A DNA stretch of 64,000 nt from an uncultured Acidimicrobiia bacterium. GTDB taxonomy: Bacteria; Actinomycetota; Acidimicrobiia; Spongiisociales; Spongiisociaceae. The position numbers were made by a program, and so were the translations under genes. A model generated the notes under the pieces. The model saw only the letters and a list, made by a program, of their open reading frames with translations, was not told the origin of the DNA and did not search any database. Positions 1,042 through 57,970 of this stretch are shown here, in pieces; position 1 is the first letter of the stretch; each line of letters opens with the position of its first letter. The stretch lies in NCBI GenBank assembly GCA_964516495.1, contig CAZEZF010000002.1:1231-65230 (forward strand), given 5' to 3'.

Positions 1042-2064
1042 ATGACCGGCCCTTCTGGAGGCGACTCCATGACCGCGATAACAACCACGGAGATGCATAC
1101 GGGAGGTGAGCCGGTTCGAATCGTCGAAACCGGTTATCCCCCCATTGCGGGTACGACGATACTCGACAAACGGCGTTACGTACGGGAACACCTAGACCAC
1201 CTCCGCACCACCATCATGCATGAACCGAGAGGTCACTACGACATGTACGGGGTGATCCCTGTCGAGCCCGACCTTCCGCAAGCGGATCTGGCGGTTCTGT
1301 TCATGCACAACGAGGGCTACTCCACGATGTGCGGCCACGCAGTCATAGCGTTTGGCAGGTATGCGGTGGATCGGGGACTGGTTCCTAGGAATGCGCCAGT
1401 CACCGAGATGGTGATCCAGTGTCCGTGCGGTCCGGTGACCGTACAGGTGGAGGTGAAAGACGGCCGGGCAGGCAGGGTCCGCTTTCGCAGCGTCAAAGCC
1501 TTCGCCGCGGCTCTTCAACATAAAGTTCATGTTAAACCTTATGGTTGGGTCACCTACGATATAGGGTATGGCGGAGCTTTCTATGCGGTCAGCGACGCCT
1601 CCCGATTCGGGCTGGAGGTAGGCGCCTCACGGGTGGAAGAGTTGGTCAGGGCTGCCAAGGCTTTGAGCGACGTCGTTAGGGAGGAAGGGGGATTGAGCCA
1701 CCCCGACAACCCTGAGTTGGCGGAACTCTACGGGTCGATCCTCACCGACGGCCGGGACGGAGAGGATGCGTCGGCCAACATCTGCGTCTTCGCCGATGCG
1801 CAGGTGGATCGTAGCCCGACCGGCTCGGGAGTAACCGCGCGAATGGCTATCCGCTATGCCCGCGGCCAGGTTTCTATCGGCGACGAGCGGACCTTCGAGA
1901 GCGTCGTGGGGTCGCGGATGACCGGAATGGTGGTAGCGGAAACAACCCTTGGTAGGTATCCGGCGGTCACGGTCGAGGTTGCTGGGAAGGCTTACTATAC
2001 GGGGAGGTCTTCATTCATCGTGGAGCCTGATGATCCGTTCGGGACAGGCTTTCTGGTTCGTTGA
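1042..2064 (+). CDS. Proline racemase family protein, Cys/Thr catalytic pair suggests trans-3-hydroxy-L-proline dehydratase type; start may be ATG at 1069
   Basis: MHTGGEP N-terminal motif; first catalytic motif MCGHA (Cys) and second SPTGSG (Thr instead of Cys), as in T3LHyp dehydratases. Confidence 0.7.
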   Translation: MTGPSGGDSMTAITTTEMHTGGEPVRIVETGYPPIAGTTILDKRRYVREHLDHLRTTIMHEPRGHYDMYGVIPVEPDLPQADLAVLFMHNEGYSTMCGHAVIAFGRYAVDRGLVPRNAPVTEMVIQCPCGPVTVQVEVKDGRAGRVRFRSVKAFAAALQHKVHVKPYGWVTYDIGYGGAFYAVSDASRFGLEVGASRVEELVRAAKALSDVVREEGGLSHPDNPELAELYGSILTDGRDGEDASANICVFADAQVDRSPTGSGVTARMAIRYARGQVSIGDERTFESVVGSRMTGMVVAETTLGRYPAVTVEVAGKAYYTGRSSFIVEPDDPFGTGFLVR

Positions 2065-2267
2065 CCCCGATTTTTCATGCAGGGGTTTGAATGGGTAACC
2101 GAGCGAGATGCAAAGAACTCTCTGACCTGCGACGATAGCTGATTGACGGCCTCTACTGGCCGGGGTATTACCTTTCACCCGAAAGGTGAACGCCGGGACG
2201 CCCCCATGCAAGTGGACTTGACGTGGCCTTTTCAGGTTCGGTGTGTCCGGGGCATGAAGAATTGGGG
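2065..2267 (+). mobile_element. MITE family A copy 1 (203 bp), flanked by TTGA target duplication (2061-2064 includes the upstream stop codon; 2268-2271)
   Basis: Terminal inverted repeats CCCCGATTTTTCATGC ... GCATGAAGAATTGGGG; about 85-90 percent identical to copies at 6915, 7271, 57605. Confidence 0.75.
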
Positions 2268-2806
2268 TTGATGCATCGGTTCAGCAAGCGTGACCGCCCG
2301 ACTGGTCAACCACCTACCCGAACGGCGCTTTAGGGTTCTCGGGTGAGCGCTGCCTTCAGATGGACTTGCATCGGCTGACGTGCCGCCTCCATGTGCAGTC
2401 GGTAGGTCATGGCGTTGTCTTTGACTTCAATAATCCTTCTTACACGGGATACTTCGACTGCGGTAGCGGAAAGTCCCACCAGACTGGTTTGGAAATCGAT
2501 CCGGTGGTCTTGCACGACGCCCGTGTGGACTTCGACGATTCCGGTCGGTTGGCTTATGACCAACTCGACAACACTTTTGGAAACGGGCCTGATGTAGCCG
2601 GTTTCGGAATGCAAAGGCTCTTGTTCGGCGCCTAGACGGTGGGTTGTCTGCCGGTAGATAATGAAAGGTTTACCGGGTCCAGGTGTGTATGTAGCTGTTT
2701 CTGTATATGCGAACGCGTCGATGGTAGGGTAGCGCCCCTCCCCGGCGCCCCTCCAGACTCCGAGGAGGAACTCCAGAGGGGCGAGTGCGGGATGTAGGTC
2801 GTGCAT

Positions 2807-6849: not shown

Positions 6850-6914
6850 GGATGGGCTTCCTTTCTAGCGTTTTCGAGGTACATCTTCACCGTCGTCGAA
6901 TACAAGAATACTAA

Positions 6915-7116
6915 CCCCGATTTTTCCATGCAGGGGTTTGAATGGGTAACCGAGAGAGATGCAAGGAACTCTCTGACCTGGGAAAATAGCTGCTTGGTGG
7001 CCTCTACTGGCCGGGGTGTTACCCTTCACCCGAAGGTGAACGCCGGGACGCCCCATGAAAGTTGGTTTGACGTGGCCCTTTTCGGGTTCGGTGTGTCTGG
7101 GGCATGAAGAATTGGG
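6915..7116 (+). mobile_element. MITE family A copy 2 (202 bp), CTAA target duplication (6911-6914 / 7117-7120)
   Basis: Same TIRs and internal sequence as copy 1; perfect 4-bp direct repeat flanks. Confidence 0.75.
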
Positions 7117-7270
7117 CTAAAGGGTTTGGCCTCTTGGTCTTGTTGTCGAGGTCCCGGGTCTACTCTCGAGTCGGGGGTATGTCACGCTCGTCCGTCGCGG
7201 TGAGGCCGTATCATTCATCGGATCGATTCGGCCTCATACCGAAGAGGGCAGCCCGATGGGTACGCAATAG

Positions 7271-7472
7271 CCCCAATTTTTATGTAGGGGTTTGGATGGG
7301 TAGCCGAGAGGGGGGCAAGGAACTCTCTGACCTAAGAAGATAGCTGTTTGGCGGCCTCACCTGGTCGAGGGGTTACCCTTCACCCGAAGGTGAACGCCGG
7401 GACGCCCCATGAAAGTTGGTTTGACGTGGCCCTTTTCGGGTTCCGGTGTGTCTGGGGCATGAAGAATCAGAG
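7271..7472 (+). mobile_element. MITE family A copy 3, 154 bp downstream of copy 2 (ATAG/CTAG flanks)
   Basis: Full-length alignment to copies 1, 2 and 5. Confidence 0.7.
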
Positions 7473-19717: not shown

Positions 19718-20737
19718 ATGCCCCGATTGTTGTTCCTGGTATCGAGTGCGCGAGAAATGAAACTTGCCGATGGCACTACGACCGAGACCGGGTATTTCGC
19801 CGATGAGGCGCTGACGCCATACGAACGGTTCGTGGAGGCGGGCGTAGATGTGGTGGTCGCCACCCCGGATGGCCTATCGCCCTACGCCGATCCCTACGGG
19901 TTGGAAGAGATATTCCATTATCCGGATGCTGACGAGGACTTTCTCAACAGCATCACCCGGACTTTCGCCCATGACATCGACGACATTCGCCTCACCCTGC
20001 ACCATCTCACCGAACTCGGCATGATTTCAGCTCGTCGGGTATTCGATCGCCTCAAAACAGCAGGTATGCATCCGATCGAGGCCCGCAAACTGGTAGCGCG
20101 GGCAGCAGCCGACTCTTGGCGTGACGATGAGCAATTCATCGATTCGCTATTGTCGGAAGATCTCCCCGATTCGATCACTCGCACCGACCTCGAAGCCGCC
20201 CTCGGCGAGGTCCTGGCCGACAGCCAATCGGAATCCCAGCGTGTGAAGGGCGCCTTGGACTCCCTTCCCGGCTTCGTTTCGCCCGCCGACCTATCGACCA
20301 TGACCGACGAGGAGATCGGCGAGTTCGACGCGGTATTCGTACCCGGAGGCCATGGGCCCATGGTGGATCTGGCGGACAACCCCGACGTTACCCGGGTAAT
20401 TCAGATCCTGCATCAGAAACAGGCGTCGATCGCCTCCGTTTGCCACGGACCCGCTTTCCTACTCTCGGCGCCCGCCAACCTCGACGGTCAATGGTTGTTC
20501 GACGGTTACCGGGTTACCTCCTTCACCGACGAGGAGGAGGACCAGACCAGGCCCGGCCAAAAGGGTCTGTCGTGGTATCTCGAGAGCGCATTGCGAAACG
20601 CAGGAGCGGTATTCGACGACGGGCGGTCTGCCTGGTCCTCCCATGTGGTGGTGGATCGCAACCTCATCACCGCCCAGAACCCCGGCTCCGCCGACGCGGT
20701 AGCCGATGCGGTCCTCAAGAGCCTCGACGCACTCTGA
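19718..20737 (+). CDS. DJ-1/PfpI (type 1 glutamine amidotransferase-like) family protein with insertion
   Basis: VFVPGGHGPMVDL...ASVCHGPAFL nucleophile-elbow region. Confidence 0.6.
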   Translation: MPRLLFLVSSAREMKLADGTTTETGYFADEALTPYERFVEAGVDVVVATPDGLSPYADPYGLEEIFHYPDADEDFLNSITRTFAHDIDDIRLTLHHLTELGMISARRVFDRLKTAGMHPIEARKLVARAAADSWRDDEQFIDSLLSEDLPDSITRTDLEAALGEVLADSQSESQRVKGALDSLPGFVSPADLSTMTDEEIGEFDAVFVPGGHGPMVDLADNPDVTRVIQILHQKQASIASVCHGPAFLLSAPANLDGQWLFDGYRVTSFTDEEEDQTRPGQKGLSWYLESALRNAGAVFDDGRSAWSSHVVVDRNLITAQNPGSADAVADAVLKSLDAL

Positions 20738-25154: not shown

Positions 25155-26396
25155 ATGGCTGGTCTCCCGGAGACCGTCGTGTTGTTAGGTGGCGGTACCG
25201 CTTCGGCGGCGTGTGCGTCGACTCTTCGCCATAGAGGTTTCGACGGCCGGATCGTGTTGGTATCGGAAGAGGTGGAACTACCTTACGAACGTCCGCCCCT
25301 TTCGAAGCAGATACCGGCCGGGACTATGGATCCCGGCGCGGCAACCATCCGCAGCGAGGATTGGTACCACGCTAACGATGTAGAGTTGCGGCTTGGTGTC
25401 AGGGTCATATCTGTAGACGCAGACGGTTCGGCGGTCGGCACAGAGAAAGGTGAGCGAATCGGGTACGACCACCTCCTGGTCGCTACCGGGGGGCGGGCCC
25501 GGAGGCTGGCCCATATCGAAGGAGATCGAGTCCTGCACCTGCGCACCCGACGGGACGCTGAGAGGCTGTCGTCCGTATTGCGGGAGCGAGGCCGTCTCGC
25601 GGTGCTGGGTGGAGGTTTTATAGGTTGCGAGGTGGCCTCGACCGCCTTGGATTTGGGCGTTGAAGTGACCATTATCGAGATGGAGCCCTACTGTCTCCGC
25701 GCGCCTCTGGGGGACCGTTACGGACGGATCATGACCGAGATCCATGAGGACCGGGGATGTCGGATGCGGATGGGGGAGAGGGTCACCGGCGCCATCGAGA
25801 CTGCGGATGGGTTGATGGTGACCACCGACCTGGACAGGCTGGAGTGCGACTGGCTACTGGTAGCCGCCGGTATGATCCCGAACACCGAACCGGTACTCGG
25901 TACTCCGATCGAAGTGGACAATGGGATACTGGTGGATAGCCACTGCCGAACTTCCGTTCCCAACGTGTACGCAGCCGGAGACGTCGCCGCCCGCCGTCGT
26001 CCCGGTGGCGGGCGGCGGGTGGAGCATCATGACAACGCCATGAGGCAGGGCGCGGTGGTAGCTCGCAACATCCTGGGCGAGAAGACATGCGATGACGAGC
26101 CGCATTGGTTCTGGTCGGACCAGTACGACCTGTCGATTCAATCCCTGGGTGAGTTCGATCCGGATGCGAACCATGTGATCAGAGGATCGCTCGACGATCG
26201 GTCCTTCTCGGCCTTCCATCTCGCCGGGGATGGGGTGAGCGGGAGTAGCATCGAGGGAGTACTGACCATCGGCCGACCGAGAGATGTCTTTGCGGCCCGA
26301 AAGCTCATGAAGTCGGGAATGACCGTGACTGCCGGACAGCTGGAGGACCTTTCCACGGATTTGCGCCGCCTCGCTCGACCCCGGAGACGACGATGA
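25155..26396 (+). CDS. FAD/NAD(P)H-dependent ferredoxin reductase (pyridine nucleotide-disulfide oxidoreductase family)
   Basis: N-terminal VVLLGGGTASAACA, second dinucleotide fold LAVLGGGFIGCEVA, BphA4-like architecture. Confidence 0.75.
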   Translation: MAGLPETVVLLGGGTASAACASTLRHRGFDGRIVLVSEEVELPYERPPLSKQIPAGTMDPGAATIRSEDWYHANDVELRLGVRVISVDADGSAVGTEKGERIGYDHLLVATGGRARRLAHIEGDRVLHLRTRRDAERLSSVLRERGRLAVLGGGFIGCEVASTALDLGVEVTIIEMEPYCLRAPLGDRYGRIMTEIHEDRGCRMRMGERVTGAIETADGLMVTTDLDRLECDWLLVAAGMIPNTEPVLGTPIEVDNGILVDSHCRTSVPNVYAAGDVAARRRPGGGRRVEHHDNAMRQGAVVARNILGEKTCDDEPHWFWSDQYDLSIQSLGEFDPDANHVIRGSLDDRSFSAFHLAGDGVSGSSIEGVLTIGRPRDVFAARKLMKSGMTVTAGQLEDLSTDLRRLARPRRRR

Positions 26397-26800
26397 GTGA
26401 CCCAGCGCTTCCGGCGCCCACCGTGACCGCCCTCAAGACCAACGTCCGGATCGACCAGGACGAAGCCGTACATATCCTGAGGTCTATCGAGGGTATGAAT
26501 GTCGAGGAGGCTCACCGAGCTCTCAAGTTCCGGCCCGGTCTTGTTTCGGCGCCGCTCTCCCGGGTACTCGAGCAGGGCTTGGCGGAAGCGGCCCGCTTCG
26601 GGATACGGAGCCGTGAGATGGAGGTCGGTAGTTGGAGTGTGGACGATGGGGATGTAATCACCCGTCTGCGGAGGATGGCGCACGGCATCGCCGATTGGAT
26701 CACCACCAGCACCACCCGGGTCGAGATTCAATTACTAGTAGTGACCTGGCAGACCTCTTCGGGACAGGATGAACGCGACCAGATCACAGAGAGAAGGTAG
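26393..26800 (+). CDS. Hypothetical protein translationally coupled (ATGA) to the reductase; sequence pattern resembles the ribosomal uL22 fold
   Basis: VEEAHRALKF / RVLEQGLAEAA / VDDGDVITRLRRMAHGIADWITTSTTRVEIQL parallel the L22 blocks VSQALDIL / KVLESAIANAE / [32 protein letters not shown]. Confidence 0.35.
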   Translation: MSDPALPAPTVTALKTNVRIDQDEAVHILRSIEGMNVEEAHRALKFRPGLVSAPLSRVLEQGLAEAARFGIRSREMEVGSWSVDDGDVITRLRRMAHGIADWITTSTTRVEIQLLVVTWQTSSGQDERDQITERR

Positions 26801-26805
26801 TTACG

Positions 26806-27141
26806 ATGGATCCAGTCAAGGTATCGAGCCCGATCCGGAGTCGGATCATCGAATCGCTGCGAAATGTGATCGATCCGGACTTGGGTGTGAACATTGTCGA
26901 CCTGGGTTTCATACGCCGAGTTCAGGTCGAGGGTCGCGAGGCTTCCCTTGACGTGACCCTTACCAACCCTTTCTGCCCGCTTACATCGGTCATCGAGGAC
27001 CAGATGCGCAACGAGTTGGTAGGGGAGGGGATACTGGAGGACTTCCGAGTCAGTTGGGTGTTCGACCCCCCCTGGTGTCCGGATCAGGTCACCGAAGAGG
27101 GTCGAAAGCAACTCCGATCGATCGGGTTCGCATCGATGTGA
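26806..27141 (+). CDS. DUF59 / SufT (MIP18-like) metal-sulfur cluster assembly factor
   Basis: DPDLGVNIVDLGFI...NPFCPL motif of DUF59/PaaD-like proteins. Confidence 0.7.
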   Translation: MDPVKVSSPIRSRIIESLRNVIDPDLGVNIVDLGFIRRVQVEGREASLDVTLTNPFCPLTSVIEDQMRNELVGEGILEDFRVSWVFDPPWCPDQVTEEGRKQLRSIGFASM

Positions 27142-27196
27142 GCCCATCCCTGCAATTCCAGGTTCCAGGTAAGGTCATCTCGAGGAAGGATCCAAC

Positions 27197-27478
27197 ATGA
27201 CGATCATCGCTACCTACGACGTATCCGAAGGCAATGGGGACAGGGTTGCCGAACTGTTGAAGGGTTATGCACCCACGGTACTCACCGAACCGGGATGTAT
27301 CGCCTTTGATGTGTACCGGAGCAATGACAACCCGAACCGGTTCGTGCTTGTGGAGCAGTACACAGGCCAGGCCGCGGTGGAGGCCCACATAGCCGCCGAC
27401 CATTTCGACGAGATAGCCGTGAAGCAGATCCGCCCTCTTCTGGCCGACCGCAGCGTCGACTTCTTGACGAAGCAGTAG
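27197..27478 (+). CDS. Antibiotic-biosynthesis-monooxygenase (ABM) domain protein
   Basis: 93 aa, ferredoxin-like ABM pattern (FVLVEQYTGQAAVEAHIAADHF). Confidence 0.65.
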   Translation: MTIIATYDVSEGNGDRVAELLKGYAPTVLTEPGCIAFDVYRSNDNPNRFVLVEQYTGQAAVEAHIAADHFDEIAVKQIRPLLADRSVDFLTKQ

Positions 27479-27664
27479 ACGACCCAGGCGCCCGATCCAG
27501 CCCCGTTGTTTGCCGGCAATAGGTTGGTTGGCGCCATTCTATCGGTGAGTAGATGTCACAAATTCCTGGACGCCAAGATTGGGGTGGGGTAGCCTGAATG
27601 ACCTACCCACCTTGGCTAGGCGGCCGCCGAAACGATCAAGACATCAACACATCATTACCACAAG

Positions 27665-27959
27665 ATGCTATGTTGTCTTGAGCGGACAACCTTGACTCTC
27701 GATGATGATGTAGCGGCGGCTCTCAGGGAACGGACCCGGCTCACCGAACAGACATTCAAGCAGGTCGTCAATGACACCTTGCGGCGAGGCCTTTCCCCGG
27801 CGCAACCGGAGGCGAAAGCGGGTTACCGTCGTCAGGGTCCACCACGGTGGATTCCTATCTGGAGTCGATCCATTACGCCTGAACCAACTCAACGATTCGC
27901 TTGAGGCCGCCGGGTTCGCCGGCTCACCACTTTCACGGGATGTCCCGACCTTAGGGTGA
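27665..27959 (+). pseudogene. vapB: VapB-type (RHH, RTTLTLDDD) antitoxin gene with a frameshift near 27828; its 3' end is overlapped by a MITE
   Basis: ERTTLTLDDDVAAALRERTRLTEQTFKQVVNDTLRRGL in one frame continues as VVRVHHGGFLSGVDPLRLNQLNDSLEAAG in the +1 frame (track ORFs 27665 and 27771). Confidence 0.6.
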
Positions 27960-28068
27960 TGGGGGCGCCCCGTCCAGACGAGGCCGTCACACAGCTATCT
28001 TCCCAGGTCATGTGGTTAATTTCACCTCGCTCGGCTACCCATCCAAACCCCTGCATGAAAAATTGGGG
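27935..28068 (-). mobile_element. MITE family A copy 6, diverged/partial, inserted at the vapB-vapC junction (TTAA at 28069-28072); left boundary approximate
   Basis: 28068 leftwards matches the first ~100 nt of other copies (ccccaatttttcatgcaggggtttggatgggtagccgag...); weaker similarity further left. Confidence 0.55.
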
Positions 28069-28085
28069 TTAACGGAACGGAGCAA

Positions 28086-28403
28086 GTGGGGATTGCATGG
28101 ATCGTGGCGGCAGGGTTCGTGCGGTTACTCACCCACCCCAACGTTCTCAGTACCCCGGCGACACCGGAACACGCCGTTGACACCATGGCGGAGTGGTTCA
28201 TTTCGCCCGGCGTCATACCCCTGAACCCGGGAACGCGGCGCCTTACGATCTTCCGCCACATGCTTTCGGCCGCCGGAGTAGGCGGGAACCTTGTTACTGA
28301 CGCTCACATCGCTGCGCTCGCTATCAAGTATCAGGCCGAGGTCCACTCCAACGATCGCGATTTTATGCGCTTCCCCGGTTTGCGTTGGCGTAACCCTCTC
28401 TGA
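28086..28403 (+). pseudogene. vapC: VapC (PIN) toxin gene lacking its first ~35 codons (MxLVDANVLLYAV... missing)
   Basis: C-terminal two-thirds of PIN domain incl. GNLVTDAHIAALAIKYQAEVHSNDRDFMRFPGLRWRNPL; paralogue of 29151..29579. Confidence 0.65.
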
Positions 28404-28515
28404 TCTCCCCTCCGTCGGCGTTGTCTGACCTGATGCAGGCCGAAGGTGGACCAGTCGGCTTTGTGGGCCTACGTTGTCGGTTGTCTCCGAGATCGGTGAC
28501 GGACAGGATTCTTAC

Positions 28516-28875
28516 TTACAGGCGTACCGCGGGCAGTCGCTTTAGTTCTTCCCGCTGAGGATCAACCACGAAGCCCCCGGATTCGAGTGCGGTTACGGCC
28601 AGTAGTGGTTCTACACCTTCCTCGCCGAAGACCACCATGTTCGCTACAAATACACCTTCGAACTCCAGCACCGCCGCGCTGATGTCATAGGTGACGATCC
28701 TCCCATCGGCCGTCTCGTAGTCGCGGTTGGAGATAGGCGCCAGCCCGATCGACTCCAGGTACGATCTCGGCGCTACCGAGTCGAATGCGCCGGTGTCGAC
28801 CAGGAACCTACCGGTCCATGACCGGTCGAGATCAGCCGGATTCCGAACTGTCACATCAACATGGGTCATCCCCAC
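28516..28875 (-). CDS. Retropepsin-like (clan AA) aspartic protease, copy 1
   Basis: Catalytic VDTGAFDS (D-T-G-A) motif, 119 aa; about 80 percent identical to 31157..31516 with co-duplicated 5' and 3' flanks. Confidence 0.7.
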   Translation of the reverse strand: MGMTHVDVTVRNPADLDRSWTGRFLVDTGAFDSVAPRSYLESIGLAPISNRDYETADGRIVTYDISAAVLEFEGVFVANMVVFGEEGVEPLLAVTALESGGFVVDPQREELKRLPAVRL

Positions 28876-29097
28876 AGGATACCCTCCTTGGTATCGAAAA
28901 CGTAGTAATCAATAATAGATTATTAACATATAATTACAAGACCAATGAGGTAGGACAGTCGGATAGAATGAGTCGGCGCCGAACGTGGTCGGCGTCCGTG
29001 GAAGACCTGTGACACGCCACCCCCGAACCGTGGACTCGTCTACTCAAAGACTTTCTGATAGCAATACATCAGTCAAGTCGATGCTATAACTGTCAGA

Positions 29098-29579
29098 ATG
29101 CGAACGACTGTGACGCTCGACGCGGACACCCAACAGATTGACAGGGGATCGTGAAGCTCGTCGATGCGAACGTACTTCTGTATGCTGTCAACGGCGACGC
29201 GCCCCACCACTGGACGCCGCCAAACGGTGGCTCGACGGCGCACTCAACGGCGGGGCGACGGTTGCCTTTGCCTGGGTCGTCTTACTGGCCTTCATCCGGC
29301 TGGCTACCGCGCGCAGCATCTTCACCCGACCACTACGACCGCAAGAGGCGATAGCGCAGGTAGTTGACTGGACATCGCAGCCAACCGCTGTTGTCGTGGA
29401 GCCCACCGTCCGGCATCCTCATCTCGTTGAACGGTTACCGGCGCCGAGCGGGCCGGGTGGGAACCTCGTCAACGACGCGCATCTGGCTGCGCTCTCCGTC
29501 GAACACCGGTGTGAAGTCGTAACCCTTCGATCGTGACTTCGCCAGATTCGAGGGCATCCGCACCCGACTTCCGGTTTGA
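29098..29579 (+). pseudogene. vapC: vapB remnant (18 codons, 29098-29154) plus vapC (PIN) with two frameshifts (about 29212 and 29524)
   Basis: VKLVDANVLLYAVNGDAPHH | DAAKRWLDGALNGGATVAFAWVVLLAFIRLAT...GNLVNDAHLAALSVEHRCEVVT | FDRDFARFEGI read in three frames; GTGA start/stop overlap with the MRTTVTLD remnant. Confidence 0.65.
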
Positions 29580-29804
29580 TCCCGACGACTCGAAAAGGCG
29601 CCATCAACATGTTGCGAAGGTCAGGTTCGAGGGCGTCCTCACGAAGAAGATAGAATCCTTAGCGTAGAGTAGTGAGAATTAGTAGTGTAGTAATGCGTGA
29701 ACTTATAGTGCTGACATAGCCTACGGTATCGGGTGACCAGTATCCGTATCGGGAGGACTACTGGGCCACCTGCGGCGCCGGGTAGTCGTTCAAGGGGACG
29801 AAGT

Positions 29805-31100
29805 ATGGCCGACACGGAGAAAACAACGTACCGCCCTCGGGTGGTCGATAAGGAGTTGGATTGGTTGCTGTCCGGACTTCCGGCTATCAGTATCAACGGT
29901 CCGCGCGCCGTGGGAAAAACCAGCACCGCCCTCCGGCGCGCTCGGACCATCCACAGCCTGGACGACCCCCAGACGTTGGCGCTGACCCTGGCCGATCCCG
30001 GCCGCTTGACAGCCGGGGAGCGTCCGGTGTTGATCGACGAATGGCAACTCTATCCCCCTGCGTGGGATCTGGTACGGCGCGCTGTGGACGCCGACCCTGC
30101 GCCGGGCGGGTTCATTCTCACCGGTTCCACGGCTCCGGAGACACCCCCGACGCACTCTGGCGCCGGACGCATCATCGTGTTGAGGATGAGGCCGATGGCA
30201 TTGAGCGAGCGCGGCCTTGAAGCGTCGACCGTGAGCCTGCGCGCCATGCTGGAAGGGAACCAACCCCCGGTGAAGGGACGGACCGGCGTAGGTCTGGCGG
30301 ACTACGCCCGGGAGATAGTCTCCGGAGGCTTTCCGGGCATGCAACACGCCGACCCCGAACTCCAGTCGGCTTACCTCGACGGCTATCTCGACATGGCTAT
30401 CGACCATGATGTAGCCCTGATGGGTTACCGGGTTCGCCGGCCGGTTATGATGCGACGCTGGCTGGCCGCTTACGCCGCGGCGACTGCAACCACCGCGACT
30501 TACGAGGCCATTCTGGATGCGGCCACTCCCGGAGAGGGCCAGAAACCGGCGAAGACCACGACGGCGGCCTATCGCGACCTACTGGAGGCGATGTGGTTGG
30601 TGGAGCCGGTCTCCGCCTGGCAACCGCGTGGCAATCCCCTACGACGACTCAAGCGGGGGCCGAAACATCATCTGGCCGACCCTTGCCTCGCCGCCCGGCT
30701 GATGGGAGTAACGGAAGCCTCGTTGGTCTCGCCCCTTCCGAAGGAGAGGGCGCATCCTGCTCCGTTTGCCAAAGGTCCTCTGCTGGGCGCATTGTTCGAA
30801 TCGCTGGTTACCCAGAGCGTTCGCGTCTACGCCCAATCTGCCCGGGCGCGGGTGGGCCACCTGCGAACCTGGAATGACGTTCGCGAAGTCGATCTGATTG
30901 TCGAGCGAGAGGACAAGGTGCTCGCAATCGAGGTCAAACTCGTTGCCGCCCCCACTCGTTCCGACACCGCCCACCTACGTTGGCTCGCTGACCAGATGGG
31001 CTCTGAGGTCTGCGATACCATGATCGTGACCACCGGCCGGCACGCCTATCGGGATCAGGACGGAGTAGCCGTGGTTCCCGCCGCGTTGCTAGGTCCCTGA
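29805..31100 (+). CDS. COG1373-type AAA+ ATPase (AAA_14 + DUF4143 architecture)
   Basis: Walker A GPRAVGKTS, Walker B VLIDEWQ, C-terminal DUF4143-like region. Confidence 0.6.
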   Translation: MADTEKTTYRPRVVDKELDWLLSGLPAISINGPRAVGKTSTALRRARTIHSLDDPQTLALTLADPGRLTAGERPVLIDEWQLYPPAWDLVRRAVDADPAPGGFILTGSTAPETPPTHSGAGRIIVLRMRPMALSERGLEASTVSLRAMLEGNQPPVKGRTGVGLADYAREIVSGGFPGMQHADPELQSAYLDGYLDMAIDHDVALMGYRVRRPVMMRRWLAAYAAATATTATYEAILDAATPGEGQKPAKTTTAAYRDLLEAMWLVEPVSAWQPRGNPLRRLKRGPKHHLADPCLAARLMGVTEASLVSPLPKERAHPAPFAKGPLLGALFESLVTQSVRVYAQSARARVGHLRTWNDVREVDLIVEREDKVLAIEVKLVAAPTRSDTAHLRWLADQMGSEVCDTMIVTTGRHAYRDQDGVAVVPAALLGP

Positions 31101-31156
31101 ACTCTCGTCCTTCCTATACAGTCTCCGAGTTGATTCGAGTCGGACCGGGGATCTAC

Positions 31157-31516
31157 CTACAAGCGCACCGCGGGGAGTCGGGTGAGTTCTTCCCTCCGGG
31201 GGTCTACTCGGAATCCACCGGATTCGAGTGCGGTGACGGCGAGGAGCGGTTCCACGCCCTCCTCGCCGAAAACCACGGTGTTTCCGACCAGGACTCCCTC
31301 GAACTCCAGTTCCGCCACGCCGATGGCATAGGTTACGGAACTTCCGTCCGCGAGTTCGTACTCACGGGTGGATCTGGGCTTGATTCCTATCGCCTCGAGA
31401 ACCGATCGCGGTATTACCGAGTCGTAGGCGCCGGTGTCCACCAGGAACCGGCCTGTCCATGACCGACCGAGATCAGCCGGATTCCGAACCGTCACATCAA
31501 CGTGAGTCATCCCCAC
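31157..31516 (-). CDS. Retropepsin-like (clan AA) aspartic protease, copy 2
   Basis: VDTGAYDS motif; 119 aa; duplicated with promoter/RBS region (31517-31595) and 3' flank. Confidence 0.7.
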   Translation of the reverse strand: MGMTHVDVTVRNPADLGRSWTGRFLVDTGAYDSVIPRSVLEAIGIKPRSTREYELADGSSVTYAIGVAELEFEGVLVGNTVVFGEEGVEPLLAVTALESGGFRVDPRREELTRLPAVRL

Positions 31517-31573: not shown

Positions 31574-34500
31574 TTACAAGGGCACGGAGGCGGGGCGGTT
31601 AGAGATGGTCGGTTCGACGGCCAGCCTTCTGCGCCACTCGACAATCTCTTCCTCATCGAAGTCGAGGGCCATCGCAGCGGCCCGGTCGATGATCCGGCGC
31701 GCCTGACATTCTTGACCTAGCGACAGGGGGAGCATCTCGAGGTCGGCGGCCTGCTCCCATGCCTCCGCGAGGTGTGACCAGGCAGAGTTGTCGGGTCTGG
31801 GTACTCCGACCTGCCGTAGCTGCGCCAACGACCACGATGGATACGTCAGTTTCTTCGTGCGGAGGTTGAGTAGCATGAGTCGGACGGGAGTGGAGTTCCA
31901 CCATGCCACCAACGCCTTGCCTTCCGGTTTCCCGGAGACCGCAACCGGGATCCATCCTGACCCGATGGACGGTGTCGGCGACCAGAGAGCCGTTAGACGC
32001 CCGCTGATAGTGTCGTAACGCTCGGTGACTAGAGTGTGACTGCGCATCTCCCAATACCGACGAGCTAGGTGTGACTTGTCGGCCTTGGGATAGCCTTGAT
32101 GGTCTGGCGTACCCGCCATCCGCCGGTGGATCTTGGCGGCGATTGACCAGAACAGGGGAACTGTCTCCGGGTCTACCTCAGCGGACTTACGATAGGTATC
32201 GCGTATTCCCCGCCCTGATGGGCCGATCCAGTGGTGAAGGCCGATCGGTTCCAAGTTTGGCGACAGGTTGATTAGGTAGGTTGCCTCGGCAAGTTGACCG
32301 TCGAACCACTGCACTGGCGCCCAGTCGCCGGCTTGGACGCGGTCGGCCGGCCAGAACGTGCGGCTGCCCCACTCGGTAGCGTTCCTTTGTGCGATGGCGT
32401 CTGCTGCTGCAAGGGTTTCTTCCGGGCTGGTTGGCATTCTGCGTAACGCGAAGAACTCGGTCTCGGGGGGGGGGTGTTGATTCGACGCGCTATCAGCAGG
32501 CACTCGTGTATGCCGGTGTTCTCGGAGAAGTTTATGCGTTTGGGGTCGTGCGAGGTGATGATCCGTTCGATGTGGAACCGCTTCGCCAAGAAAACACGCT
32601 CTTCCACACCCGACGACCCGATGCAACCTGTCGCCGGAACAACTTTCGCGAGCGTTCCCGCTGTGGTCCCATTCCTGTCAGATGGCGAATCCGTACCCTC
32701 TTCACCCGCGTACGGATCCCGGAGGAGGCGGTCGGCGAGGGGAGTGAAGAAGGTGCTGACGCTGTTGACGTTGACAACCTGTCCGGCTTCATGGTCAGAT
32801 TGGGATAGATGATCGCGCAGGCTCAACTCGTACTGCTGCATCTGTCTCACCTGTTCAGAGGTGTATTGGCGGCCTCGCTTCACGTTGTTGGTGAAAGGTG
32901 GGTTCATGATGACCAGGTCGAGGTTGCCGGTCGGTAGCTCGGTCTCCTCATCGCTCACCTGGGTAGCGCCAAGTCCCAGCCGGGTTGCCAGAGGACGTAC
33001 CAGGCTTGCCAACGAGTCCGCATCTTCGGCGGCGCCGAGAATCTCCAACGAACCGGCTTTGACCTCACCGTCCGGTTGCGGACCGTGTTTCAGGGTGAAT
33101 AAGTTTATCCGTCGGTAGTCAACCGTCGGGGCGCCCAAGGTCAGGTTGCAGGCGGCCATCTGCACGGCGTAGCGGTTGATGTCAAGGCCGTAGATCACGT
33201 TCTCGACCAACGCCTTGTGGAACCCGGCCATGTCGTCCTCGCTCATCTGACGAGCTTCTCGTACACGGGACTTCATCACTTGCAGGGCGGCCATGAGCAG
33301 CGTTCCGGTGCCGCAGGCCGGATCCATGATTCTCAGTCGATTTACCTGTTCGGTGTCGTTCCATTCAACAAAGTCCTCGCTGATGGCGAGCCGGGCCAGT
33401 AGTAGCGCCGAGATGTTGTTGGTGTAATACGAGCCGGTCGCAGCGGCGTTGGGCAGGATGCGGTGGTAGAGCGGTCCGGCATGGTCGTAACCCAACTCGC
33501 TGAGCGAGGTGGCCGTTCGGTTGGCGCACTCGGCGAGTATGCATAGGGCGTGGCTTACGAAGCGCCGCCGGGGTAGGGTGGCGAGAACTGCCACGGCGGG
33601 TTCGAACACCGGTTTGTAGTCCTGTTCCAGGATTTTCTCCCAGTCGCGGACCAACGCCTCGGCGGGGTACTCGTCGCCCGACACCCGGGCCAGGTCGTCC
33701 AGCCAACCCATGTGCGCCACATCGGCCAGCCTACGGTGTAATAGGCAGGCGTTGGCGACCAGGAGTGCGGCGATCTTGCAGATATCGCGCTCGTTCCGGT
33801 CAACGCTCAAGCCCATGGCGGTTGCCAGGTCGGTAGCCAGGTCTCCCTCCTTGAAGAGCCCGGCCGCTCGCCGTACCGCATGGGTGATCTCGTCGGCTAC
33901 CAGCAGACCAGGTGTTCCCAGACCGGAGGAGGCCACCACATGAGCGAAGATGCCGCGTCCGACCTCCTTGAGATCAAGCGTCAACTGATCCGGGATGTAG
34001 TCCTCTTCGGATGACGGGTCGTCTCCGGTCGGTTCCTGGACGGAGACGAAGCGAAGCGGGTCCTCCGCGAGACGCCCGTCGTGGGACTGAAGCGCCCGCA
34101 ATACCTGGCCGACGGCCTTGTAGCCCTGGCTGCCTTCAGAGAGCGCGGTGGTCAGGTCCTCGCCGGGGGAGATCGGGATCGGCACGATTACATACCCGAG
34201 CCGCTTGCCCTCGCTACGCCGCATAACCCGACCAACCGCCTGGACGATGTCCACCTGGCTGTCCCTCGGCTCCATAAAGACAATGGCGTTCAGCGACGGA
34301 ACGTCGACACCTTCGCTGAAGAGCTTCACGTTGCACAGAACCCGGGCGGTGTCGCCGTCGCCGGCTCGACGAAGCTTCCGAAGGGCCTGGTTGCGCTGGA
34401 AGGCGCTGTTGGCGCCGTCGAGATGTTTGGCGTCGATCTTCAAGGAGGACTCGGCGTCGCGTCGACCCCGGCGTACCCGGCGGGTAATGAGAGATCTGAG

Positions 34501-35985
34501 TTCGGGATGCGCCAGAGCTTCGGCGAAGAACTTGGAGCGTTTGATCGAGTTGGCAAAAGCGATGGTGCGGTGTAGTCGCCCCGGGCGCTCCAACGATGCG
34601 CCTTCCGCCACGCCGTTGATAGCCAGGGCGGTTCCCAACAGGCGGGTCGCTTCGGTGCTGGTGACGGTCAGGGGCTTTCCCCGCCCCGTGCTCAGCTGTT
34701 CGCCGAGGGAGACCAGGCGCCTCCACATGCCCTCAGGGACGTCCCGGTCGCGGACGCCGAGCACGATCACCCGGTAGTCGGAGAGCATCTCGTGGTTAAC
34801 GGCGTCTTTGAAGGACAGGAGGTCCAGTTCCGGTCCGTACACCTCCAAGTCGGACATGTCCACCGTCTCGATACCCCGGGCTTTGAGTGAACCGCGAGAC
34901 CTGGCCGTGTAGATACGCGGCGTGGCGGTCATATAGAGGCGTTTGGAAGCTGACAGCAGGTCATCGTGATGCACCGCCTGGAACCCGTTGAAGTCCTTGA
35001 TCTGTGAGCCGGCCCGATCCACGCCGGTGGTGCGATGCGCCTCGTCGCACAGCACCAGATCGAAGGAGGGGGTCTCGTGTTTCTGCTGGGCCTCGGTCAG
35101 GCGCCGGAGTGACTGGTAGGTGGAGAACACCACCCGAGTGTTGCTGGTTTCCGGTTTTGGGGCCATCAAATCGGCCAACTTCTTGGGATCGGAAGTGACC
35201 GCGCATTCGAGTTCGGAGAGCTTGATCTCGTTTCCTTCTCCACGACCTCCGGCGGAACGGTCCGAGCAGACGACCCGGCAGTCGAGAGGTCGGAGGGTGT
35301 GCCGTAGCCACTCCCGCCTGGCCTGCGAGACGAGGGCGATGCTCGGGGCGAGGAACAGGATTCGACCACCGTCGGGAACCACCTGCTCCGCTATCCGGAG
35401 TGCGGTGAACGTCTTGCCCGTGCCGCACGCCATGGTGAGGCGGCCCCGGTGATGGTATTGCAGACCCTTCACGACTTTGTCGATCGCCTCCTGCTGGCGC
35501 GGCCACGGTCGGCGTACCGGGCGACCGTCGCCCGGTACGGTGAGCGGATCGTTCTCATGCCGCAGGAAGTCGATCCGTCGAACGGGTGGCTCAGCCCCTT
35601 CGACAGCCGCCTCGGCTGCCTTTGTCCAATCACTGGTGGCGATAATCCAACGCATGGAGTAGACCGACTGCTGGGTGAAACCAAGGAAAGAGTCGATTGC
35701 CGGCTTCGAGACGCGGGCCTTCTCGGAGTAGCACTTGCATTGAATGGCGATCCATCCGTCGCTTCGATGCCGGGCTACCAGGTCGACTCCCCAGTCGCGA
35801 CCGTCGTGTCCGGTCAACTCCTCCCGTTCCGGCCAGTCCGCCCATCGGTGGACCTTCTCGATCTCGTATTCAGGGTTTGCCAAGAGAACCTGGCTGACAA
35901 GGTTCTCGAACCATCGACCCTTCTCACTCTCGTCACGGCTTTCCCGTCGGATCCGATCCAGCGCCTCGCCAATCGTCGAAACCAT
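31574..35985 (-). pseudogene. Type ISP-like single-polypeptide restriction-modification enzyme (Mrr-cat nuclease - SF2 helicase-like ATPase - gamma-class N6-adenine MTase - TRD), reading frame broken at a C10 homopolymer (phase-variable, pseudogene or sequencing error)
   Basis: Mrr-like D...QCK (GVDLVAR...IAIQCKCY); Walker A MACGTGKT and DEAH box LVLCDEAHR; MTase motif I MDPACGTGTLL and motif IV VIMNPPFTNN; 1237-aa frame degenerates into low complexity after INTPPP while the overlapping 350-aa frame (HPPPETEFFALRRMPTSPEE...) continues as a plausible TRD. Confidence 0.7.
32465..32474. repeat. G10 (C10 on coding strand) homopolymer tract at the frameshift point of the RM gene
   Basis: tctcGGGGGGGGGGtgttga; both overlapping frames translate it as PPP. 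Confidence 0.9.
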
Positions 35986-47161: not shown

Positions 47162-47592
47162 CCGGGTATCCTCCCAGGAGAGTGTCGAAAAAGACGGGGG
47201 TGGGTCCACCGCCTGCTGACCAGGGAGTTTATCATCGAACTTCGGGCCGGCAGGAGGTTTTCAAGTACCTTCCTGTGTTGTCCTGAATCACTGTTTATTT
47301 TGTCGTTGTGGTCGGTTGCGTGGTTAGGGGACGGGTTTTTGTCCTAACCATGTTGCATACCGATAGGTAACTGCGATCACCAAGCGGCCCGTTTGGGTAC
47401 CGGCCGGGCCGGGATCATGTTGAACGTACCTGACCCTAGGTAGGGGGTATGGGGGGACGCGTTTCGGCGCTGAGGCGGCGGCGGTTGGGGGTGGTACCCA
47501 CTAGGGGAGTCAACCAGATAATAAGGATGTTTCTCGCGGCCTTTGGTCCTCAGGGGCCGAACAGTTCTGGCGGCAAGCACGTTATTCACCAA

Positions 47593-47717
47593 CCCCGATG
47601 ATTCTTCATGCCCCCGTCACGCCGAACCCGAAAAGGCCAAGTCAAACCCACTTTCTTGGTCGTCCCGGCGTTGTAACTCGTTCGTACCCATTCAAACCCC
47701 TGCATGAAAAATCGGGG
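47593..47717 (-). mobile_element. MITE family A copy 4, internally deleted derivative (about 125 bp)
   Basis: Both TIRs present, central ~80 bp missing; CCAA/TCAA flanks. Confidence 0.6.
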
Positions 47718-47813
47718 TCAATAAATCTCAGAATCAGGACAAGCAACTACCGAGCGTCAGGACCTCTACCGAACCTCGGACGAAGTAGGTCGGTAGACTG
47801 TCCGCCATCTTCC

Positions 47814-49112
47814 ATGAGAGGGACTGTGGCACGCGACTCCATCTACACGGCGGCGCTCCGTCGGGTGAGCGACGAATACATTCGGCGCAACCCCGCCTCT
47901 CGGGATATTGCCCGGCGCTCTGCGAAGGTACTTCCGGGCGGCACGACGCGTACCACGACCTTTTTTGCCCCGTTTCCTCCCGTCCTGGTCAGTGGCCGGG
48001 GTTCTCAGGTGGTGGATGTTGACGGCAACCGGCGGGTCGACTACCTGAACAACTACACGTCGCTCATCCTGGGCCATGCCCATCCGAATGTAATGGCGAG
48101 AGCGATGACCGTGGCGGAGCGGGGTAGCGCCTTCTCGTCCCCCACCATCCAAGAGGTTCGGCTGGCGGAGATGCTGGTTGAACGGGTTCCATCGGTGGAA
48201 CAGGTTCGATTCACAAATTCGGGTACCGAGGCGACGATGGCCGCGCTGCGGCTAGCGCGCGCCTTTACCGGGCGACCCAGGGTGGCCCGGTTCGAGGGCG
48301 GCTACCACGGGACCCACGACTACACCGCCACGCCGGGGGCCGGAATACCGGATGCGGTTGACGAACTGGTCGTTACCCTTCCTTTCAACGATGTGGCCGG
48401 TTGCGGGGAGCGGCTGGTGGAGGTGGCTGATTCGCTTGCGGCGGTGATCGTAGAACCGGTGCTCGGGGCCGGAGGAGTGATAGCCGCCGAACGGGACTTC
48501 CTGGCGTTTCTCCGAGAGGTAACCCGCCGGGAAGGGGCGTTGCTGATATTCGATGAGATCATCTCGTTGCGTTTGCACACCGGGGGGGTTCAGGCCATCT
48601 ACGAATTGGAACCGGACCTCACCACCTTCGGCAAGATTATCGGTGGGGGTTTCCCGATCGGCGGGTTCGGCGGACGGCGGGACGTGATGGCCCTTCTCCA
48701 CCCGATCAACGGCACGATAAGTTGGGGGGGAACCTTCAACGGAAATCCGGTCAGCGCATCGGCCGGCATAGAGACTCTCCAGGCCTTGACTCCGCCGGTC
48801 ATTGACGGGCTTAATCAGGCCGGAGACGAGTTGGCGGAGCGACTCGACAAGGTGTTCGAGATCTCCGGACTACCGGTCGGGGTGACAAACTACGGGTCGC
48901 TGTTCAACATCCATGCCACCGGCGATCCGATCCGTGATAACCGGGCGGTGGCGGGCGCCGATCCTGAACTGGCCGAAATCCTCCATCTCGGTTTGATGAA
49001 CCGCGGCTTCTTCCTTGCACCCCGCGGCATGGGTTGCCTTTCCACGGCCATGACAGCAGATGACCTGGACGGCTTGGTGGCGGCGGTCGAGGATTTGGTG
49101 GCGAACCTGTGA
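47814..49112 (+). CDS. Class III aminotransferase (glutamate-1-semialdehyde aminomutase-like); N-terminal part of track ORF is MITE translation
   Basis: PLP-fold motifs GGTEATMAALRLARAFTGR, FDEIISLRLHTGG. Confidence 0.7.
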   Translation: MRGTVARDSIYTAALRRVSDEYIRRNPASRDIARRSAKVLPGGTTRTTTFFAPFPPVLVSGRGSQVVDVDGNRRVDYLNNYTSLILGHAHPNVMARAMTVAERGSAFSSPTIQEVRLAEMLVERVPSVEQVRFTNSGTEATMAALRLARAFTGRPRVARFEGGYHGTHDYTATPGAGIPDAVDELVVTLPFNDVAGCGERLVEVADSLAAVIVEPVLGAGGVIAAERDFLAFLREVTRREGALLIFDEIISLRLHTGGVQAIYELEPDLTTFGKIIGGGFPIGGFGGRRDVMALLHPINGTISWGGTFNGNPVSASAGIETLQALTPPVIDGLNQAGDELAERLDKVFEISGLPVGVTNYGSLFNIHATGDPIRDNRAVAGADPELAEILHLGLMNRGFFLAPRGMGCLSTAMTADDLDGLVAAVEDLVANL

Positions 49113-57286: not shown

Positions 57287-57604
57287 TGGGTGGTCCTCCT
57301 CCGAGGCATTTTGTTTGTCCTAAACGTCGATCAACCAGCATCCGGCGTCTTCGGCAACCCGGATCATGCTGTCTCTGGTTCTCTCATACACATAGGAGGC
57401 GGAGACCGTTTGATGGTCTGGGCGTATCTTTAGTTCTCCGGCCTCGGTCTTTCGACCCGACTCCAACCCATCACCCGTTGCTTCGACACCGAAGTTCCCT
57501 GGAAGCGTGAGCGTAGTGAGCGCCCCTTCTATCAGAGGCCAGAAGGACTCGTAGTGGGCATGACCTAGTGTCCCGAATGTCTCGACCCAGTTGTCGACCC
57601 TTAA

Positions 57605-57805
57605 CCCTGATTCTTCATGCCCCAGACACACCGACCTCAAAAAGGCCATGTCAAGCGCAGCACCGTGGGGCGTCCCGGCGTTCACCTCAGGGTGAAGGGT
57701 AACACCCCAGCCAGGCGGGGCCACCAAGCGGCTATCTTCCCAGGTCAGAGAGTTTATTGCATCTTTCTCGGCTACCCAATCAAACCCCTGCATGAAAAAT
57801 TGGGG
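57605..57805 (-). mobile_element. MITE family A copy 5 (201 bp), perfect TTAA target duplication (57601-57604 / 57806-57809)
   Basis: Full-length, both TIRs. Confidence 0.8.
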
Positions 57806-57970
57806 TTAATGCCCCGACAGCCTCCAATTCCTTCACATCATCCAAGGTGAGCATCACTTCGTAGCTGGTTGCCAGGTTCAATAACCGTTGCAATACGGTC
57901 CCGAGGTTACCGCAGGAGTTAAGAAGTTCCAGAGCCAAGCAAACCGGGATCGAGTTGGAGGGGCGGTCCC

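Follow-up and report, generated by a model that had tools for sequence, protein, structure and literature searches.

Has the short repeat that lies between a vapB-like antitoxin gene and a vapC toxin gene inactivated the toxin, and was insertion alone enough to produce the arrangement seen today? The window (the whole stretch of DNA that was analysed, 64,000 nucleotides) comes from an uncultured Acidimicrobiia bacterium, whose association with sponges is suggested by the family name and by titles in the sponge-microbiome literature; among sequenced genomes its nearest relatives are MAGs that carry the labels Acidimicrobiia and Candidatus Spongiisociaceae. The locus, at 27665-28403, lies in GC-rich DNA directly 3' of a soluble di-iron monooxygenase cluster and an ABM monooxygenase gene. 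The earlier note had read it as a palindromic MITE that inserted at the vapB-vapC junction and took the place of the toxin start and the intercistronic spacer, a clear case of toxin-gene inactivation by a selfish element. The features of the locus are as follows.

27633..27684, no strand assigned: imperfect 21-nt inverted repeat spanning the vapB start, 76% complementary, with 10 nt between the arms
27665..27926, forward strand: vapB-like (RHH-type) antitoxin pseudogene, from DNA alignment to the intact vapB of L003/L004
27826..27836, forward strand: single-base insertion (+1 frameshift) in vapB, one extra window base near 27830 in the alignment to L003/L004
27927..28069, forward strand: 5'-truncated MITE copy of 143 nt, nhmmer profile positions 54-203 of 203, E 2.5e-29
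28069..28072, forward strand: TTAA, the remaining (right-hand) copy of the target-site duplication, from which the ancestral GTT-AAC (Val31-Asn32) is reconstructed
28071..28403, forward strand: vapC (PIN-domain toxin) remnant, codons 32-141 and stop, by its match to TIGR00028

Within the di-iron monooxygenase cluster, an ORF with a ribosomal-protein-L22 domain (26393-26800) sits between the ferredoxin reductase and an FeS-assembly (DUF59-like) gene, and its DNA is conserved in related Acidimicrobiia/Spongiisociaceae loci. Further along, at 32272-35985 on the reverse strand and near two toxin-antitoxin (TA) modules, is a 1237-aa fused Mrr-like nuclease / ResIII helicase / N6-methyltransferase protein, which is consistent with a defence or accessory island. 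A search of the plasmid collection by blastn with the locus gave no match, Rfam over 27000-30000 gave nothing relevant, and a promoter and terminator scan found no site within or beside the MITE fragment. The imperfect inverted repeat at the vapB start may possibly be the operator or promoter region of the operon.

Four intact vapBC loci (L003, from a TARA metagenome, and L004-L006) were compared at the DNA level, and in these an 81-aa gene lies directly upstream of vapC with a 4-nt overlap or 8-nt spacing. The window DNA is about 74-76% identical to the vapB of L003 and L004, and 27665-27926 encodes, across two frames, a small protein whose N-terminus is of the MRTTLTLDDD type. The single frameshift placed near 27828 by the earlier note is borne out, the extra base being ambiguous in its exact position within the interval listed; the frameshift sequence is also present in the independent Logan contig L027. 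GAG stands at the ATG/GTG start of the homologues, and an in-frame ATG is found five codons upstream, at 27665. At the other end, homology reaches the codon before the homologues' stop (...LEAAGFAG then TCA, 27924-27926, in the window; ...LEAADFAG then TAA in L004), and the frame continues 11 codons into the MITE, to TGA at 27957-27959. The frameshift-corrected protein is sub-threshold for Pfam PF09957 (13.0 bits, cut-off 23.4) and RHH_1 (14.3, cut-off 20.5), as is the intact L004 homologue for VapB_antitoxin and RHH_1; NCBIfam gave no matches for the window protein and only unrelated weak ones for L004 (E 0.12-0.21), and an exact-sequence look-up of the 79-aa ORF found no record. The gene is, however, small, co-oriented and directly upstream of a PIN toxin gene, as in L003 and L004-L006, and the putative name VapB is based on this gene order and on the weakly RHH-like N-terminus.

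The repeat downstream of vapB belongs to a family. When the window was searched by BLAST with 27850-28110, four full copies and one internally deleted copy were found beside the copy at the vap site.

57604..57806, forward strand: full-length MITE copy, in reference orientation
2064..2268, reverse strand: full-length MITE copy
6914..7117, reverse strand: full-length MITE copy
7271..7472, reverse strand: full-length MITE copy
47592..47718, forward strand: MITE copy with an internal deletion of ~75 bp, both termini kept

The family thus has at least six copies in the 64-kb window, the full ones being 201-205 bp long, which is below the ~300-500 bp usual as an upper limit for MITEs and too short to encode a transposase. 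The terminal inverted repeats are CCCYRATTYTTCATGC at both ends (consensus of the termini CCCC(G/A)ATT(C/T)TTCATGC), and a 21-nt terminal motif occurs five times in the window against 0.00 expected from 100 shuffles. The 4-bp flanks are TTAA/TTAA, TCAA/TCAA, TTAG/TTAG, CTAG/CTAT, and CCAA/TCAA, so that the target duplications are identical in three of the five copies and match at three of four bases in the other two. Terminal inverted repeats, 4-bp duplications and dispersed copies are the classical marks of a MITE, a non-autonomous derivative of a DDE transposon. The element is not palindromic as had been described: only 16-17 bp of terminal inverted repeat pair in the fold, together with a short central hairpin, and the fold is no more stable than that of shuffled sequences (z -0.89). 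No autonomous partner or transposase with the MITE termini was found in the window. The 4-bp, TTAA-like flanks resemble the 3-4 bp TTAA/TAA-type duplications of the IS5 superfamily (PIF/Harbinger-like); the TTAA-like duplications are reminiscent of IS5-superfamily targets, but IS5-type ends are unlike the termini of the window MITE.

Exact terminal motifs (25-mers, 0 matches) and a central 20-mer identified no member of the family in 185,579 GTDB representative genomes and JGI metagenomes, a set that does not include the source genome. Four metagenome matches to the central 20-mer were rejected as chance, at ~44 nt each by nhmmer. In the relatives L009-L016 there is no overlap with the MITE positions except at the vap site, where the whole segment is missing. 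The family is apparently undescribed and belongs to an uncultured sponge-associated Acidimicrobiia lineage. Several features of the other copies were noted in passing. The copies at 6914-7117 and 7271-7472 have the same orientation and lie 153 bp apart in one intergenic region. One frame is open throughout the MITE (...GRPGVHLRVKGNTPA.RGHQAAIFPGQRV.CISLGYPFKPLHEK...), and P0136 (106 aa, NCBI), the only match of a MITE-peptide search, is essentially a translated MITE copy on another contig. The copy at 47592-47718 overlaps the called start of a class-III aminotransferase ORF (47598-49112); the Pfam match begins only at residue 129, so this start has probably been called too far upstream.

The copy at the vap site was delimited with a profile HMM made from the four full copies. 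Positions 1-53, including the left terminal inverted repeat, are missing from it, and it has a 6-bp internal deletion; the right terminal inverted repeat is intact. It therefore has one terminal repeat and one duplication in place of two of each. The earlier observation that the vapB frame runs into the 3' part of the MITE is confirmed by the profile match. The same is true of the right end, which had been placed at 28068 and followed by TTAA: GGGG occupies 28065-28068 and TTAA 28069-28072. The last G of the MITE and TTAA read GTT-AAC, Val-Asn, in frame at codon 32, and homologues have V/A-N at vapC codons 31-32, V-N in most (GTG-AAC in L004).

This copy is ~79% identical to the others, with a variant in its left part, GGGATGTCCCG-ACCTTAGGG, also written GGGATGTCCCG-ACCTTAGGGTGATGGGGGCGCCCC. 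Since the adjoining vapC remnant is little decayed, the ~21% divergence is not mostly decay that followed insertion, and the copy probably belongs to a divergent subfamily whose divergence is largely older than the insertion.

Could the similarity be spurious, or the junction an artefact of the assembly, for example a chimeric join made at a repeat? Run SRR22586461 yielded two Logan contigs that bear on this, L027 being 100% identical to window 26376-27956 and L001 to window 28046-31403. They reach 30 nt and 24 nt, respectively, into the fragment from its two sides and then end; both breaks are inside the element, and none of the independent contigs crosses the whole fragment, as an artefact would allow. 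Contigs of short-read assemblies typically end at repeats. The complete agreement of the two contigs with the window means that neither the frameshift nor either MITE junction is confined to a single assembly, and no other copy in the window could have supplied a sequence as divergent as this one, ~79% identical to its relatives. With the profile E value added, an artefact or a spurious match is hardly credible. The earlier note had also allowed that no vapC sequence was lost and that the resemblance to the family was spurious; the E value and the intact homologues, which show the loss from vapC, speak against both. Look-up of the flanking proteins (Asp-protease and ABM) returned contigs of the same population only. 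A further contig, L026, from run SRR22586457, breaks off at window 27611, within unique sequence and ~55 bp short of vapB; strain variation at the left border of the first vapBC segment, or low coverage, could explain this.

How much of vapC is gone depends on where the MITE fragment begins. By eye, 27936-27953 resembles the vapC start of the homologues (GTGATCGTCCCGGACCTCA), the resembling stretch being 27939-27951 (GAT-GTCCCG-ACCT). If 27936-27953 (cgGGATGTCCCGACCTTA) were a degraded GTG-ATC-GTC-CCG-GAC-CTC start, the beginning of vapC would survive, the vapBC spacer would be TCACCACTTTCACGG, the MITE fragment would be only about 120 nt (27948-28069), and the deletion would have extended from about codon 7 of vapC into the centre of the MITE via shared ACCT(C/T)A microhomology. 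A hand alignment to L004/L003 has 13-15 matching bases with two 1-nt gaps, and no internal 6-bp deletion of the MITE would be needed. However, 27924-27960 scores only 9-10 against the vapC start, no significant excess over random window segments (p 0.07 for L004, 0.04 for L003), and the local alignment of the same stretch to the MITE consensus is far stronger, with a score of 17 against a null of 6.4+/-1.3 and none of 3000 as good. The preceding CCACTTTCA matches the MITE at nine of nine positions and is without counterpart in the vapBC loci. Replacement of 27900-27950 by 2000 random window segments lowered the profile score from 97.4 to 87.4+/-2.0 bits, with 4 of the 2000 reaching the real score; the left extension 27927-27950 is worth ~10 bits over random flanks. 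The MITE consensus itself scores 9 against the vapC start of L004 (window 9) and 7 against that of L003 (window 10), and its resemblance to the L004 start comes from CGTCCCGG...ACCT, which both contain. Because the resemblance to the vapC start adds nothing beyond chance, it is concluded that the MITE fragment adjoins the vapB end and that vapC codons 1-31 are wholly gone. Survival of the vapC start is quite improbable.

What is left of vapC is well preserved. The remnant matches TIGR00028 (VapC/PIN) over profile positions 37-141 of 143 with 94.8 bits (cut-off 73.6), and the N-terminal part of the PIN domain, positions 1-36, is unmatched; Pfam PIN (PF01850) alone is sub-threshold, at 20.2 against a cut-off of 23.6. 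In a protein alignment of 13 sequences, it fills columns 32-141 without gaps against eleven intact 141-aa homologues and the more distant L009 VapC. The missing columns 1-31 hold the near-invariant Asp5, Leu9, Tyr11, Ala12, His20, Ala23, and Trp26, and the TDAH and NDxDF motifs are retained. In the DNA, homology to the intact loci restarts at 28071, where AAC-GGA-ACG-GAG (N-G-T-E) begins with codon 32 of the 141-codon genes. The longest ORF is 28086-28403 (105 aa), beginning with a GTG that corresponds to residue 37, in good agreement with the earlier description of a vapC without its start block and open only from residue ~36. By what is established for PIN nucleases, the remnant, without strand beta-1 and the first catalytic Asp of the PIN fold, would not be an active RNase.

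The remnant was also searched against 5.8 billion proteins. The 105-aa ORF is present there as a predicted protein, P0001 (sources NCBI and Logan), 99% identical. Those listed below it are mostly 141-aa proteins at no more than 85% identity, and among the matches listed there is no closer intact orthologue, nothing above 85% except the truncated ORF. The intact P0002 is 85% identical in amino acids; the closest intact vapC is about 77% identical in nucleotides and sits in a different genomic context. Copies of the same vapC subfamily truncated at the 5' end have arisen independently in L007 (3950-4336) and L008 (3990-4378), with breakpoints near codons 20 and 18, respectively; no vapB is called upstream of either, no similarity to the MITE family was detected in either, and the genomes are about 2-4 Mb.

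The remnant has no internal frameshift or stop, deviates at only four of 63 positions that are invariant in the eleven intact homologues (H88R, A90T, E117K, A130M), and has 15 nonsynonymous and 30 synonymous lineage-specific substitutions, a ratio similar to that of intact relatives. For these reasons the inactivation of vapC looks recent relative to the split from those relatives. The same facts can be read in another way, in which the 105-aa, N-terminally truncated PIN fragment is no dead relic: the cell would keep and express it, perhaps with the help of signals at or close to the MITE end, and the catalytically inactive product might serve, for instance, as a decoy that binds VapB-type antitoxins or the PIN partners of related modules. 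The intact ORF, a GGAG 3 nt upstream of the GTG, and a 15:30 ratio typical of constrained genes would fit. A very recent inactivation also explains these facts, and a retained protein is considered very unlikely.

The observations on the two ends of the MITE fragment can be brought together in a history of two steps, which is the probable one. A MITE of ~203 bp would have inserted into an intact vapC at the TTAA of codons 31-32 (GTT-AAC). A single later deletion of about 150-160 bp would then have taken 53 nt of MITE (positions 1-53), the 4 nt of the left duplication, ~90 nt of vapC (codons 1-31), and the vapB stop with its spacer (0-8 nt), and would have fused the last vapB codon straight to the MITE interior at position 54. 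The decay of vapB by the +1 frameshift may have come before or after the event in vapC. Because the MITE copy is truncated on its left, a simple insertion cannot explain the locus, and an insertion and a deletion are both required. In support of this history, the right MITE end meets vapC exactly in frame, as insertion into an uninterrupted gene predicts, and the copy at 47592-47718 is also internally deleted, so deletions recur within elements of the family. Against it, no allele of the locus with a complete MITE or without the MITE was found, and the history is for this reason a reconstruction; the distance of the closest intact vapC and the contrast between a diverged MITE copy and a little-decayed vapC also count against it. 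The deletion is not the classic IS-mediated adjacent deletion, since the element lost its own end.

Two parts of the earlier reading change as a result. On this history the original insertion site was inside vapC, at codons 31/32, and the present position of the MITE at the vapB-vapC junction is a product of the deletion. The element does occupy the place of the toxin start and the spacer, as had been claimed, but the copy is truncated and its insertion did not by itself replace them, a later deletion being required.

Whether relatives preserve an empty site was addressed through syntenic loci, which were recovered by a contig scan with the neighbouring ferredoxin-reductase gene. Between window positions 20000 and 27478, where the ABM gene ends, L009 and L010 are collinear with this DNA at ~82% nucleotide identity, and L009 passes directly from ABM to the orthologue of a second TA module, which in the window lies at 29098-29579. 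A segment of 1.6 kb that comprises the first vapBC, the MITE, and an Asp-protease gene is missing from these closest genomes. They offer no orthologous empty site of the kind that the earlier note had hoped to compare, the whole segment from vapBC to the protease being gone, and its absence from the nearest relatives identifies the first vapBC as accessory DNA in a variable island.

The second module had been proposed as an intact-looking paralogue, and it is not intact. In comparison with L009, its vapB retains just 18 codons, and two frameshifts interrupt its vapC (indels of +2 near 29210 and of +1 near 29523); this vapC is 42% identical in amino acids to the remnant of the first. The orthologue of the second module is intact in L009 (12327-12949), and in L010 (12660-12869) its vapC is lost. 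Around these modules a clan-AA aspartic protease gene is duplicated (28516-28875 and 31157-31516, both on the reverse strand; ~77% nucleotide identity over 428 bp), and the two direct copies flank the second TA module and a DUF4143/AAA_14 ATPase gene. Markedly AT-rich stretches in the otherwise GC-rich DNA lie upstream of the Asp-protease (28880-28960) and DUF4143 ATPase (29640-29720) genes, the former containing the only promoter-like hexamer pairs of the region.

The state of the island bears on the order of events. If the deletion came first, or if vapC or the whole module was already dead, by the vapB frameshift for example or on arrival by horizontal transfer, the MITE would have landed in non-functional DNA and inactivated nothing. 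Both TA modules of the island are pseudogenes, the first is accessory DNA missing from the nearest relatives, and the truncated vapC copies of L007 and L008 were shortened with no MITE detected, all of which agree with such an order. However, the TTAA at the right end of the MITE exactly restores two in-frame codons of the homologues, and a MITE that arrived at a breakpoint already present could have lost its left end only through a second event. Loss of the antitoxin ahead of the toxin is also expected to be counter-selected, and by this logic of TA systems it is more likely that the toxin was lost before the antitoxin. A deletion that preceded the MITE is therefore regarded as unlikely, and insertion into vapC followed by one deletion is retained as the preferred history. 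The MITE may or may not have been the first event to inactivate the module, and the lesions of vapB and vapC may have come in either order. The description of a selfish element inactivating a toxin is correct to the extent that the toxin gene is without its first 31 codons, and toxicity would have been lost with them; to call the locus a clear example overstates the case, since vapB is also broken.

Decay of TA modules is commonplace. The first module resembles the VapBC modules of TIGR00028 (Mtu_PIN_fam) in that the remnant is above the cut-off, an RHH-like antitoxin gene comes first, and the gene order is the same; it differs in the missing N-terminal catalytic Asp and the frameshifted antitoxin, and is a relic and not a working module. 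The repeat family is like known prokaryotic MITEs in being ~200 bp long, non-coding, and multi-copy, with terminal inverted repeats and short target duplications, in having mostly intergenic copies with an occasional insertion in a gene, and in having size variants that arise by internal deletion.

Insertional inactivation of genes by prokaryotic MITEs is well documented, for example for Chunjie in Geobacter uraniireducens, which disrupts a phosphate-uptake operon and whose size variants arise by internal deletion (PMC10969869). Further examples of such gene-inactivating MITEs are those in the mcy cluster of Anabaena and the Correia elements of Neisseria (PMC10969869). Unlike a disruption of the Chunjie type, the vapC copy studied here is truncated at its 5' end, so an additional deletion was involved. 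The event is an ordinary one, in which a MITE disrupts a VapC toxin gene and a deletion follows, and no new mechanism is involved.

The finding matters little beyond annotation, where the P0001 ORF should be flagged as a vapC pseudogene and 27927-28069 as a truncated MITE. For the organism, it describes a variable island with two adjacent decaying TA modules, and it adds one more data point on mobile-element activity and on the erosion of TA systems in sponge symbionts.
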